NCBI GenBank assembly: GCA_036507005.1
Contig: DASXQT010000010.1
Location: forward strand, 285-64,284
Length of the DNA stretch: 64,000 nt
Reading direction: 5' to 3'
Source of the DNA: Candidatus Eiseniibacteriota bacterium
GTDB lineage: Bacteria > Eisenbacteria > RBG-16-71-46
The notes beneath the pieces were generated by a model. It saw nothing but the letters and a program-made list of their open reading frames with translations, made no database searches and was not told the origin of the DNA. The translations under genes were made by a program, and so were the position numbers. Positions 10,259 to 32,848 of this stretch are shown piece by piece; position 1 is the first letter of the stretch, and each line of letters opens with the position of its first letter.

Positions 10259-11185
10259 ATGGTGCGAAATCGGATACTCGGCAACGTTCTCGCCTGTGCA
10301 CTGCTCACCACGATCGCAGGCGTTGCTTTCGCGCAGGGCCAGTACGACGCTCCGTCGCTCACGCTCGTCGACCGCGGGTATTACCGACTCACCTTCAGCG
10401 TGACCGCGGGCCCGAGCGGCGCCCCCAACGGCTACGCGATCCAGTGGATGAAGAGGGCCAACTACGAGCTCTACGGCGGCTGGCCTGCGGACGGCAGCAA
10501 CGTCGTGTACTGCGACTTCGTCGGCGCGCCCACGCTCAACCTCTGGGCCGGATCCCCGCTCCTCGGTCCCAACGAGACCGCCTCCTTCCAGGCCGGCGAC
10601 CTCTTCGATGAGACCAACATCGAGGGGTACTCGAACGACACCTACCTGAGCTTCACCGACGAGCTCGCGCACCACACCGACTACGTTTTCCGCGCGTACG
10701 CGCGGGGCGACGCGAACAACGATGCGAGCGCCTTCTCGTCCACGGTCTTCGCGAGCACCCTGCTCGCCGAGTGCACCCAGGGCTTCTGGAAGAACCATCC
10801 GGAGCTCTGGCCGCCGGGCTGCACGCCCATGCTCCTCGGCACGGTGTCCTACACCCAGGCCGAGCTGCTCAAGATCTACAGCACGCCGGCGAACGGCAAC
10901 GGCCTGATCTCGCTCGCGCATCAGCTCATCACGGCCAAGCTCAATCTCTGCAACGGCTCCACGTATCCTGCGGAGGTCCAGCAGGCGGTCAACGACGCCG
11001 ACGCGCTGATCGACGGCCAGGTGGTGCCGACGGTGGGCAGCGGCTTCCTGGCTCCGAGCCAGACCAGCGATCTCACCGAGACGCTGGACGACTACAACAA
11101 CGGTCTCCTCGGCGGCGTGGCGAACTGCCCGACCTCGGTGAAGAACAACACCACCTGGGGCCGGCTGAAGGCGCTCTACCGCTAA
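10259..11185 (+). CDS. secreted hypothetical protein with C-terminal WGRLKALYR motif
   Basis: ATG at 10259 is preceded by GGGAGG. The signal peptide MVRNRILGNVLACALLTTIAGVAFAQG is followed by 6 Cys. The extreme C-terminus is CPTSVKNNTTWGRLKALYR. Confidence 0.7.
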   Translation: MVRNRILGNVLACALLTTIAGVAFAQGQYDAPSLTLVDRGYYRLTFSVTAGPSGAPNGYAIQWMKRANYELYGGWPADGSNVVYCDFVGAPTLNLWAGSPLLGPNETASFQAGDLFDETNIEGYSNDTYLSFTDELAHHTDYVFRAYARGDANNDASAFSSTVFASTLLAECTQGFWKNHPELWPPGCTPMLLGTVSYTQAELLKIYSTPANGNGLISLAHQLITAKLNLCNGSTYPAEVQQAVNDADALIDGQVVPTVGSGFLAPSQTSDLTETLDDYNNGLLGGVANCPTSVKNNTTWGRLKALYR

Positions 11186-11202
11186 GATCGGCTTTCGACG
11201 GC

Positions 11203-11237
11203 AACGGGCGGGGTCTCCTTGACCCCGCCCGTTTTGC
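11203..11237 (+). terminator. intrinsic terminator hairpin
   Basis: AACGGGCGGGG-tctccttga-CCCCGCCCGTT followed by TTTGCTGG, 18 nt after the stop at 11185. Confidence 0.7.
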
Positions 11238-11562
11238 TGGGTGCGCCCGCGACACCTGAACGCGACGATCGCGACCCGGGCTGCCTCCGGAAGCGGGGCC
11301 CTTCGGCGCGGCGCCCCCGGTCCCGACTGCGCGGATCGCGTGTCGGCCTGCGGATTGGGCTTGAGCGTGGAATCCGCCTCCTGTAGACTTCTGGACCTGC
11401 GGCGACCTGCCCTCACCCCCTCAGGGCGATCTTCCCGGGCGCGGAGCCCGGATGACGTTGCGCCGGAAGATGGTCGGACCCAGCTTGCGAAGTCGACATC
11501 GGTGCCTGCCCTGCGCGTCCACACCCCCACGGACGACCCGGGCGCAGTGAGGAGCCCTCGCT

Positions 11563-12171
11563 ATGCGCCTGACTACCCGCCTCGCCGTTGTGTCCCTTCT
11601 CCTGCTCGTCGCCGCGCCAGTTGCACGCGCCACTCCGCCGAATCCGTCCCACGGCAGCGCCAACGTGGACGGGCTCTACGGGGAGTGGGACCTGGTCAAC
11701 GACTTCTTCTCGCTCATGTACCGCGCCGGAAACCCGACCAAGCCGGTCGAGTCCAAGGCGTACCTGCGGTACGACTGCACCACGCAGACCATGTACGTGC
11801 TGGTCCTGATGGAGCCCGGCCACATCGGCTACATCGACCCGCTCCTGCAGACCGCGTGGGTCGCCATCAACACGCAGAACAACAAGGTCGTGACCGAGAA
11901 CTCGGGCGACGACGGGATCCCTCCCGACTTCCAGTGGGTGGGCCAGGGCTTCGACAGCGATCCGCAGCACGTGCAAGGCTACGAGGCCTCGTTCCCGATC
12001 GCTCCCGGGAGCTACAACATCATCTTCCACATCGACGTCATCGATGCGAGCGGCGCGCAGACGTCGGCCTCGCCTGGCTTCCCGGGCACCGGCCCGGCGG
12101 TGATCATCGACTGCAGCCCGACTCCCACGGAGCACCGGAGCTGGGGAACCCTGAAGCTGATCTATCGCTGA
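11563..12171 (+). CDS. secreted hypothetical protein with C-terminal WGTLKLIYR motif
   Basis: Signal peptide MRLTTRLAVVSLLLLVAAPVARA. The extreme C-terminus is CSPTPTEHRSWGTLKLIYR, a paralogous tail to the upstream gene. Confidence 0.7.
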   Translation: MRLTTRLAVVSLLLLVAAPVARATPPNPSHGSANVDGLYGEWDLVNDFFSLMYRAGNPTKPVESKAYLRYDCTTQTMYVLVLMEPGHIGYIDPLLQTAWVAINTQNNKVVTENSGDDGIPPDFQWVGQGFDSDPQHVQGYEASFPIAPGSYNIIFHIDVIDASGAQTSASPGFPGTGPAVIIDCSPTPTEHRSWGTLKLIYR

Positions 12172-24751: not shown

Positions 24752-25240
24752 ATGAGCTTCGCCGAATCCCTGCTGCCCGAGTTCGACCTGGAGATGGCCA
24801 CGACCCGCCGGCTGCTCGAGCGCGTGCCGGGTGCCAAGGGCGAGTGGAAGCCGCATCCCAAGTCGTTCGCGCTCGCGCACCTCGCGCAGCTCCTGACGTG
24901 GATGCCGGGCTGGATCGCGAACAGCCTGCGCGAAACCGAATACGACTTCATGAAGGCTCCGCGCTACAGCTTCGAGACCACCGAGACGCTGCTCCGCGAG
25001 TTCGACCGCAACGTGCGCGAGGCGCGCGCGGCGATCGCCGCCACGCGCGACGCCGACCTCGGCGTGGCGTGGTCGCTCAAGCGCGGCGACCAGGCCGTGT
25101 TCACCGCGCCCCGCGGGACGGTGGTGCGGAACCACATCAGCCATCTCGTCCATCACCGCGGCCAGCTCTCGGTCTACCTGCGCCTGATCGACGTGCCGCT
25201 CCCGCCGATCTACGGTCCTACGGCGGACGAGAGGCCGTAG
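24752..25240 (+). CDS. DinB-family (DinB_2/YfiT-like) protein
   Basis: LAHLAQLLTWMPGW...HISHLVHHRGQLSVYLRL shows the H..H..H metal triad spacing of the DinB_2 fold. In characterised members (YfiT) this fold supports thiol S-transferase chemistry. Confidence 0.8.
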   Translation: MSFAESLLPEFDLEMATTRRLLERVPGAKGEWKPHPKSFALAHLAQLLTWMPGWIANSLRETEYDFMKAPRYSFETTETLLREFDRNVREARAAIAATRDADLGVAWSLKRGDQAVFTAPRGTVVRNHISHLVHHRGQLSVYLRLIDVPLPPIYGPTADERP

Positions 25241-25257: not shown

Positions 25258-25935
25258 GTGGACTTCGAGGTCCGGGTCAAGCTCGCGATCTACGGCATCA
25301 CCGCGCGTCGCGGGCTCCCGCCGCGGCCGGACGAGCTGGCGAGCGAGCTGGGTGCCAGCGCCGACGAGATTCGCGCGGCCTGCGAGGGGCTGGCGCGGCG
25401 CCGCCTGCTCGTGCTCGATGCAGACGGCCGAGGCATCCGCATGGCCCCGCCGTTCTCCGGAATTCCCACCCCGCACCGCGTGCGCGTGGACGGGATCGAC
25501 TACTTCGCCAACTGCGCCTGGGACGCGCTCGGGATCCCCGCGGCGCTTCATCGGCCGGGCCAAGTGCGCTCGTCGTGCGCGCGGTCGCACCAGCCCCTGC
25601 GTCTCGAGATCGGCCTGCGGGGCCCGGCGCGCTCTCCCTGGCTCTTCCACTGCCTGGTGCCCGCCGCGCAGTGGTGGAACGACATCGTCTTCACCTGAAG
25701 CACGATGCTCTTCTTCCGGTCGGAAGCCTTCATCGACGCATGGTGCCGCGAGCGCTCGGTCCCGCGCCGGCCGGCGGTGACCATGGATCAGCTCTGGACG
25801 CTCGCCGTCACGTGGTACGCGACGCGCCTCGAGCCCGAGTCGCGCCGCCCGGCTCCCGACGAGATGCGCGGGATCTTCGCGGGCATCGGCCTCACCGGCG
25901 ACTTCTGGGATCCCAAGGCCGACACGTTCGGCTGA
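25258..25935 (+). CDS. merB: organomercurial (alkylmercury) lyase MerB homolog, interrupted by an in-frame TGA at 25696-25698 (candidate selenocysteine codon, or a pseudogene)
   Basis: GTG at 25258. The MerB N-terminal helix region and the catalytic C-x-x-D (GIDYFANCAWDALGIPAAL, vs R831b MerB ..YAWCALDTLIFPAL with Cys96 and Asp99) are present. After IVFT-TGA-STMLFFRSEAFIDAW the segment aligns to MerB SFCC(159/160)HVHFFASVPTAEDW, so the TGA falls on the Cys159/160 position. Both pieces are in the same frame (25258 and 25705 share a frame; total 226 codons vs 212 in MerB). Hairpin CUUCC-GGUC-GGAAG at 25713-25726, 14 nt after the TGA. Confidence 0.6.
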
Positions 25936-26201
25936 GGCGGGCTCGGGCAAGGCAGCCCGCGGCGGCCACGGCGGCCGCAACCTATTCCACAAAATTTCCC
26001 ACAACTCGTTCTTGCCGCGTTCACGGGCATCGCGGTAGCGTCGATCGCACGAGGAGAGGAAGGGCCGCGCAATCCCGGCCGGGTCGCGCGAAGGAGTCGC
26101 CGATGCGCCGTGCCCTCGACGCCGCTGCAGCCGCCCGTCCCCCGTGCCGCCCCCGCGATCGATCCCCCCGCCCATGGTGGCGTCCGCGCGCCGCCGCGCG
26201 C

Positions 26202-28301: not shown

Positions 28302-28784
28302 ATGATCGCTCCGCTCCCCTACGCGGACCTCGTGGGCTCTCGGGACACGCTGGCGCTCCTCGCCTCCACCCCGGGACGGATCGCCGGCCTGGTGCAGGGC
28401 TGGGACGCGCGGCGCTGGTCCCGCACCTACGCCCCCGGCAAGTGGACCGCGGCCCAGGTCGTGCTCCACCTGGCGCACGACGAGATCGGCTGGGGCAAGC
28501 GCGTGCGCCTGGCGCTCGCCGATGACCACTACGTGGTCCAGCCCTACGACGGCGCGCGTTGGGTGGACGCGGAGCCCGCGACCGATCCGCATGCGGCGCT
28601 CGAGGCGTTCCTCGCGCTCCGGCGCCTCAACCTGAAGCTCTTTGCAGGCATTCCGACGGAGCGGCGGGCGCGGCCGTTCCGGCACCCCGAGATGGGCGAG
28701 ATCTCGATCGACTGGATCCTCCAGACCCTGGCCGGCCACGACCTCCATCACCTCCGGCACCTGGAGGCGATCGCCGCCACGTGA
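28302..28784 (+). CDS. DinB-family protein
   Basis: WTAAQVVLHLAHDEIGWG ... LAGHDLHHLRHLEAI shows the DinB_2 histidine triad pattern. Confidence 0.8.
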   Translation: MIAPLPYADLVGSRDTLALLASTPGRIAGLVQGWDARRWSRTYAPGKWTAAQVVLHLAHDEIGWGKRVRLALADDHYVVQPYDGARWVDAEPATDPHAALEAFLALRRLNLKLFAGIPTERRARPFRHPEMGEISIDWILQTLAGHDLHHLRHLEAIAAT

Positions 28785-32692: not shown

Positions 32693-32848
32693 TCAGAAGC
32701 TGATGCCCAGCCAGGAGACGAAGACCAGGCAGAACATCAGCAACTGGAGGCCGAGCAGAAAGCGGGAGAGGACGGACAGCCGCTTGAACTCCAGCGCGAG
32801 GACGACCAGCGAAAGCAGCATGCAAAGGCCGGTGAACACCAGGATCAA
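32693..32848 (-). CDS. very small 2-TM membrane protein (hypothetical; start uncertain)
   Basis: Hydrophobic C-terminal 51 aa (ILVFTGLCMLLSLVVLALEFKRLSVLSRFLLGLQLLMFCLVFVSWLGISF). A possible TTG start lies 6 nt after GGAGG. The longer ORF to 33025 has no support. Confidence 0.25.
   Translation of the reverse strand: MILVFTGLCMLLSLVVLALEFKRLSVLSRFLLGLQLLMFCLVFVSWLGISF

Follow-up and report, generated by a model that had tools for sequence, protein, structure and literature searches.

The contig DASXQT010000010.1 of a Candidatus Eiseniibacteriota bacterium (GenBank assembly GCA_036507005.1) carries, in the 64,000-nucleotide stretch analysed here (positions 285 to 64,284 of the forward strand, referred to as the window), a gene of the family of the organomercurial lyase MerB whose reading frame contains an internal UGA codon. 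Numbered from the first nucleotide of the window, the gene and the features in it are as follows.

25258–25935, plus strand: full-length MerB-family gene, 225 residues, with a GTG start, a terminal TGA at 25933–25935 and selenocysteine (Sec, U) proposed at residue 147.
25513–25524, plus strand: codons for Cys86-Ala87-Trp88-Asp89, with Cys86 equivalent to the catalytic Cys96 of MerB and Asp89 to its catalytic Asp99.
25696–25698, plus strand: in-frame UGA, the proposed Sec codon (residue 147), which is TGA in 161 of 161 loci and aligns with MerB Cys159.
25699–25932, plus strand: C-terminal 78 codons of the same protein, found in databases as a separate hypothetical open reading frame (ORF) of 76 residues from the ATG at 25705.
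25711–25728, plus strand: stem-loop resembling a selenocysteine insertion sequence (SECIS), with a consensus stem of 7 bp (25711–25717 with 25722–25728) and a GGUC tetraloop at 25718–25721.
25704–25734, plus strand: lower stem specific to the window, GAUG (25704–25707) with CAUC (25731–25734), in the predicted fold of the window sequence.

Between the GTG at 25258 and the terminal TGA, the frame is interrupted only by the TGA at 25696–25698. With this stop bridged, the Pfam MerB profile PF03243 is matched over positions 1–125 of its 126 (94.2 bits against a cutoff of 27, E = 8e-27). When the two pieces were scored separately, the N-terminal 146 residues matched positions 1–79 and the C-terminal 78 residues positions 87–125, so that MerB homology is present on either side of the stop. 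A full-length homologue in a single frame had been proposed in the initial annotation, which was made from the sequence alone; all of its features lie where they had been placed, and the family profile extends across the stop.

A protein search with the bridged sequence returned 3,903 relatives. Relatives begin at the same position as the window gene, with the residues MDF. The 120 best were 49–100% identical to the query, all except the window's own protein being at most 81% identical, and 116 of these 120 terminate exactly at the position of the TGA, most of them as proteins of 146 aa ending in IVFT. The annotation of the region by the Joint Genome Institute (JGI) likewise contains two genes, of 146 and 76 aa. 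Records of the clade at both NCBI and JGI are truncated, and every database entry seen is cut at the UGA, the usual form being a 146-aa “organomercurial lyase” accompanied by an orphan ORF of about 76 aa. None of the NCBIfam models claims the clade, as judged from 21 family members. The small number of “full-length” proteins that databases list for the close clade (L082 191–868, P0002, P0003, P0007 and P0091) were rejected as artefacts. The tryptophan of P0002 arose when the JGI gene caller read a TGA of the DNA as W, and in P0003, P0007 and P0091 the TGA appears to have been bridged through frameshifted stretches.

Conservation of the codon was examined at the DNA level in two sets of loci. 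For the first, one genome per species was taken and its DNA fetched; at least 554 species have a relative, and the 80 best were used (24 Gemmatimonadota, 16 Verrucomicrobiota, 12 Eisenbacteria, 12 Acidobacteriota, 8 Chloroflexota, 2 Planctomycetota and 6 others). Together with the window these 81 loci are referred to as the closer clade. The second set was seeded with a Cys-type alignment and was meant to gather control loci with a cysteine codon; it consists of 80 divergent metagenomic loci, 37–55% identical to the seed, and all 80 loci returned were TGA forms. The codon is thus TGA in 161 of 161 loci, which represent at least 10 phyla. At their true ends these genes have a mixture of stop codons (TGA 89, TAA 32 and TAG 36, i.e. 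57% TGA among 157), and at that background rate 161 TGA codons would be expected with a probability of about 2e-40. In the window and the 80 species loci, homology of the C-terminal part resumes in frame 3–6 nt past the TGA. The residue preceding the UGA is threonine in 160 of 161 loci (Phe-Thr-U in the window).

These data bear directly on the alternative that the TGA is either a recent nonsense mutation, the gene then being a pseudogene, or an error made in sequencing or assembling this contig. In its favour, the window comes from a single metagenomic contig. The same TGA nevertheless recurs in 160 independent loci that differ in sample, assembler and phylum, and the coding sequence downstream of it is conserved in frame and under purifying selection. 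A TGA at all 161 loci excludes both the pseudogene and the error, the two alternatives already named in the initial annotation. Inspection of orthologues at the stop, also proposed there, gave TGA in every case, followed by conserved sequence in the same frame.

The codons next to the UGA are themselves biased. In the closer clade serine at the first position after it (25699–25701 in the window) is always encoded by AGC (41 of 41) and never by TCN, while AAC or ACN nearly always occupies the second position. This preference may reflect a context requirement beyond the hairpin described below. Just one further TGA in the window is in frame and has a coding-like G+C content at third codon positions on both sides; it lies on the minus strand at 32693–32695, where it separates two ORFs for small membrane proteins (33025–32696 and 32674–32291), neither of which has a Pfam match. 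It was not retained as a second recoded stop, as a GTG start is located 18 nt after the TGA and the arrangement is most simply read as two adjacent genes in the same frame.

Downstream of the UGA, the four codons at positions +5 to +8 (TTC TTC CGG TCG) never vary synonymously among the 81 loci of the closer clade, although the genomes range from 52 to 73% G+C and other invariant Arg and Leu codons of the same gene have a synonymous entropy of 1.8–2.2 bits. Across all 161 loci, the arginine is encoded by CGG in 159 and the serine by TCG in 160; a GGUC loop is likewise present in 160. The consensus structure calculated with RNAalifold is a stem-loop that starts 12 nt past the UGA, and insertions or deletions occur in none of the 161 loci. 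Its bases pair in 96.1% of the cells of an alignment of 141 distinct sequences, against 46–68% when the partner strand was slid by one to three columns. Compensatory double changes were found in five of the seven pairs, from C-G to U-A, from C-G to G-C, from C-G to A-U (two synonymous changes) and from U-A to C-G. The observed pairing and covariation values were reached by none of 500 shuffles. Judging from these alignments, the sequence after the UGA (TTC TTC CGG TCG GAR) is constrained at the RNA level. Of 169 instances of the motif, defined as TGA, spacer, stem and GGTC loop within an open frame, in the 1.62 Mb formed by the window and the loci, 159 are this gene; no other selenoprotein with the same SECIS motif was found in a scan of the flanks.

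The hairpin of the window deviates somewhat from this consensus, in that only the inner 5 bp are paired (CUUCC, 25713–25717, with GGAAG, 25722–25726). It had been predicted from the window as this upper stem, closed by the GGUC loop and resting on the lower stem GAUG/CAUC. Upper stem and loop are located as predicted and proved to be conserved and covarying. The lower stem is not conserved, and relatives instead pair UU with AA or AG, which lengthens the upper stem to 7 bp.

The hairpin was compared with the SECIS of Escherichia coli fdhF, the stem-loop after UGA140, as read directly from the gene. Both have a GGUC apical loop on a short stem directly 3' of the UGA and lie within the coding sequence. 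Counted from the U of the UGA, the loop occupies nucleotides 22–25 in fdhF and 23–26 in the window, an offset of 1 nt, while the stem-loop is separated from the UGA by 11 nt in fdhF and by 12 nt in the window and measures 17 and 18 nt, respectively. The candidate SECIS differs from that of fdhF by the absence of the bulged U and by a closing pair that is C-G rather than A-U, and its stem comprises 7 bp in the consensus of the family, of which 5 are paired in the window.

The paired ORFs predicted at these loci raise the question of whether the C-terminal part, which aligns to MerB residues ~160–210, is made as a separate polypeptide. In that event translation would stop at the UGA to give a 146-residue protein, a 76-residue peptide would be started from the AUG at 25705 by termination-reinitiation, and the two pieces would assemble. 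The third codon past the UGA is indeed ATG in 80 of the 81 loci of the closer clade and GTG in the remaining one, and it is this start codon that leads gene callers to predict the orphan ORF of about 76 aa and precisely these two ORFs. In the divergent set, 39 of 77 loci have ATC, ATT or ATA there and lack an in-frame start within 11 codons, so that in them the C-terminal part can only be obtained by read-through. The codon corresponds to Val162 of MerB, a hydrophobic residue. Moreover, the stop is always TGA and the spacing always in frame, neither of which is needed for translational coupling. The ATG at 25705 is not preceded by a Shine-Dalgarno sequence, and the conserved hairpin starts 4 nt past it, where it would hamper initiation. 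A split product would also lack any residue at the position of the catalytic Cys159. A split gene is accordingly regarded as very improbable.

The C-terminal 78 residues were also used as the query in a search of 1.84 billion cluster representatives. Most matches were orphan ORFs of 70–80 aa, but about a dozen were full-length, and these have cysteine at the aligned position. Cysteine occupies this column in P0155, P0188, P0196, P0200, P0237, P0261, P0264, P0265, P0268, P0271, P0272, P0312 and others; around one of them, P0200, truncated forms outnumber full-length forms by more than 10 to 1. Where the DNA of Cys forms was available (L163 and L164/L165), the codon is TGC and the hairpin is absent. 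The Arg-Ser dipeptide encoded by the loop is relaxed in many Cys forms, which have FPSA, FKNE, FDSE or FETE instead, indicating that Arg-Ser is conserved for the RNA and not for the protein. The mixed column of Cys and TGA that the initial annotation had proposed to look for among homologues was thus found, as a Sec column with rare Cys forms.

A subgroup of the Cys forms (P0237, P0261, P0268, P0312, P0320 and P0345, including loci L164 and L165) has NCxWC or NCLYC in place of the NCAWD motif. The replacement of the Asp99 equivalent by cysteine suggests a predicted metal site of three cysteines and a metal chemistry unlike that of MerB.

Tryptophan was also encountered at this column. Locus L166 (1630–2232) has a genuine TGG codon at the Sec position together with an intact CUCUUCC-GGUC-GGAAGAG hairpin and a shortened C-terminal region; this looks like a recent change of TGA to TGG, that is, of Sec to Trp, and the protein may be inactive. 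Of the full-length database proteins, P0274 carries a true TGG codon. The TGC forms lack the hairpin and the TGG form appears to be recent, so that the hairpin goes together with the UGA, as a SECIS would be expected to do.

These forms are relevant to a further possibility, namely that the UGA is recoded by means of the same hairpin to an amino acid other than Sec, either cysteine carried by a tRNA-Sec-like cysteine tRNA or tryptophan inserted by near-cognate read-through. SelB-dependent insertion of cysteine at UGA has been reported in some bacteria, the machinery for Sec was not found in the 64-kb window, and the TGG codon of L166 beside an intact hairpin could also be taken in favour of this possibility. 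A true cysteine codon would, however, be the simpler solution, and the rare Cys forms use one and have lost the hairpin. That a UGA and a costly RNA element have been kept in at least 10 phyla speaks for an advantage particular to Sec; the tRNA gene next to one of the loci (L060, described below) scores as tRNA-Sec; and the homologous position in the MerB-like selenoprotein SaoL is read as Sec. Insertion of a different amino acid is consequently considered improbable, if somewhat less so than a split gene.

The family profile was aligned with solved MerB chains. Cys86, Asp89 and Cys107 of the window protein correspond to Cys96, Asp99 and Cys117 of MerB, the profile segment “ancawda” being aligned with “YAWCALDT” of MerB, and the position of the UGA is aligned with Cys159 (3F2G, 3FN8 and 1S6L) and with the equivalent cysteine of MerB2 (5C17). 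In the window the motif NCAWD is formed by Asn85-Cys86-Ala87-Trp88-Asp89 (25510–25524). Cys86 is invariant in the family; Asp89 is invariant in the closer clade and nearly so once Cys forms with NCAWC are included. The assignment of NCAWD as the catalytic dyad, and of the TGA to the position of Cys159, was in this way borne out.

An AlphaFold2 model was obtained for the read-through form of the orthologue P0002, which is 60% identical to the window protein, with a mean predicted local distance difference test (pLDDT) score of 94.9 and a predicted template modelling (TM) score of 0.91. Its C-terminal part consists of a strand and three helices, with mean pLDDT values of 90–97 over blocks of 10 residues and of 70 in the last block. 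Searched against the PDB with Foldseek, the model gave significant matches only to MerB2 (5c17, TM-scores 0.67/0.73) and MerB (3f0o/3f2f, ~0.60/0.67), over about 200 residues, and the read-through protein is confidently predicted to fold as MerB.

Compared with the characterised enzymes MerB and MerB2 (EC 4.99.1.2; 3F0P, 1S6L and 5C17), the protein shares the fold and the equivalents of Cys96, Asp99 and Cys117, and the position of the third ligand is occupied. It differs in the Sec proposed at the position of Cys159, where a selenol, if the UGA is read as Sec, would be a functional analogue of the second catalytic thiol although not a cysteine, and the sequence identity is only ~20%. It falls well short of the models for canonical MerB (56.8 against 193 bits for NF009710 and 50.8 against 200 bits for NF033555), which the 21 family members tested all match weakly (best E = 1e-18). 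The gene is also situated outside a mer operon (merA, merR, merT, merP).

In MerB, two thiolates bind the mercury and Asp99 protonates the leaving carbon. By analogy, Sec147 at the position of Cys159, Cys86 and Asp89 would form a site for binding the metal atom of an organometallic substrate, at which protonation of the carbon would result in cleavage of the carbon-metal bond. The mechanism is most likely the protonolysis of MerB with a selenolate in place of the Cys159 thiolate, and the most likely substrate is an organomercurial such as methylmercury. Organomercurial-lyase function is plausible and is what we infer for the protein.

The initial annotation had stated that no natural Sec-containing MerB was known. 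This does not hold, because SaoL, the “selenocysteine-assisted organometallic lyase” (NCBIfam NF040728), was described as a MerB-like selenoprotein by Haft and Gwadz in 2022 (bioRxiv 10.1101/2022.07.06.499078). According to that study SaoL has a CU motif in which Sec is aligned with MerB Cys159, is truncated in databases, and has a dominant Sec form with rare Cys forms; it belongs to a nine-gene SAO locus and its hosts are anaerobic Firmicutes, spirochaetes and deltaproteobacteria. Two reviews (PMC9312934 and PMC13188914) give SaoL as the sole MerB-like selenoprotein.

The clade described here is like SaoL in being a member of PF03243 with a UGA at the position of Cys159 and with the equivalents of Cys96 and Asp99 kept. 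It is unlike SaoL in several respects. The window protein scores 41.9 bits against the NF040728 cutoff of 140, over residues 27–118 only, and all 21 members tested are weak matches (best E = 2.2e-13). The clade has Thr-Sec (FTU) where SaoL has Cys-Sec (CU), it has neither the nine-gene SAO locus nor a conserved neighbour, and its hosts are soil Gemmatimonadota, Verrucomicrobiota, Acidobacteriota, Eisenbacteria and Chloroflexota. On these comparisons, the clade resembles SaoL in the recoding and in the active-site substitution, yet is not a member of it.

Taken together, the region 25258–25935 is best interpreted as one gene for a 225-residue lyase of the MerB family that is a selenoprotein with Sec at the position of Cys159, a reading to which we assign a probability of about 0.9. 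The UGA at 25696–25698 would not be read as a stop; the stem-loop 12 nt downstream would recruit SelB with Sec-tRNA(Sec), and the Sec delivered by SelB would be inserted at residue 147. What the comparisons show is a conserved in-frame UGA with homology continuing in the same frame, constraint and covariation in the hairpin, Cys homologues devoid of it, and the MerB fold with its conserved triad; the dependence on SelB and the incorporation of selenium are what we infer. The proposal that a SECIS with a GGUC loop directs Sec to the position of Cys159 had come from the initial annotation, and it agrees with the conserved TGA, the covarying hairpin and the Cys forms devoid of it.

Several observations weigh against this interpretation. 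Taken alone, the hairpin of the window does not exceed shuffled sequences in stability (z = +0.89), so that its significance rests on the comparison with relatives, and the case made from the window alone would be suggestive only. Rfam gave no SECIS or other credible RNA family, either for the whole window at gathering thresholds or for 25500–25950 at E values of up to 10. The start codon three codons past the UGA would, considered by itself, permit reinitiation. The Sec machinery was searched for in the window and in 1.6 Mb of flanking sequence with authentic E. coli SelA, SelB and SelD sequences, ARAGORN and motif searches, and neither the 64-kb window nor the sequence flanking 159 of the 160 relatives yielded a selA, selB, selD or tRNA-Sec gene. 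With regard to function, no conserved neighbour or mer gene that would indicate the substrate was found in the window or among the 81 loci, and the strong bond between selenolate and mercury may cause slow release of the product, so that mercury detoxification is not guaranteed as the role.

The remaining locus, L060 from a metagenome-assembled genome of Chloroflexia, contains a tRNA-Sec gene on the minus strand (11172–11267), about 500 nt downstream of the MerB-like gene, which scores 58.6 bits with RF01852 against a threshold of 47. Like the precedent of SaoL, this tRNA gene counts in favour of the Sec reading. An ORF resembling a tyrosine recombinase/integrase (11394–12095) directly follows this tRNA-Sec, which may be an integration site.

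In the window, the MerB-like gene is surrounded by genes for a GNAT protein, a PhzF-like protein, a hydrolase, a DinB protein, a FlgD_ig protein that is probably secreted, and a DinB_2 protein, and no mer genes, SAO locus, ABC transporter or efflux genes are found beside it. Among the neighbours in the closer clade, no family is common to more than 6 of the 81 loci, the commonest being a methyltransferase, SDR, DinB_2 and an ArsR-like regulator. The gene is thus a stand-alone unit, outside both a mer operon and a SAO locus. The DinB-family gene immediately upstream (24752–25240) had been put forward as a functional partner separated by an 18-nt gap. The gap measures 17 nt, and the suggested partnership finds no support, as a homologue of this DinB gene is near the MerB-like gene in none of the 160 related loci. 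Two genes of the DinB superfamily flank the locus in the window, this one and a DinB_2/MST-like gene at 28302–28784. Homologues of DinB_2 were observed 2–4 kb from the gene in four other loci (L005, L007, L008 and L011), which are too few for an association.

The clade would represent a second, phylogenetically separate branch of Sec-bearing MerB proteins besides the one already known, SaoL. Its soil host phyla are generally regarded as largely aerobic. Tentatively, and with less than even confidence, it may be an unrecognised and widespread selenoenzyme of soil bacteria, present in at least 554 species genomes, in which a stand-alone lyase uses a selenolate with very high affinity for trace organometallics to demethylate methylmercury or other organometals outside the mer operon. 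If this were true, the availability of selenium in soil would be tied directly to mercury cycling.

With its entries cut at the UGA, the clade is wrongly called in hundreds of species genomes and thousands of metagenomic proteins, and it would be overlooked or misjudged in surveys of merB diversity. The host phyla Gemmatimonadota, Verrucomicrobiota, Acidobacteriota and Eisenbacteria are not treated in the selenoprotein reviews that were compared. The near-invariant element of 18 nt with its E. coli-like GGUC loop should make heterologous expression feasible. For the family, the gene provides a concrete candidate for demethylation of methylmercury independent of the mer operon, and a possible molecular link between the cycling of selenium and that of mercury.

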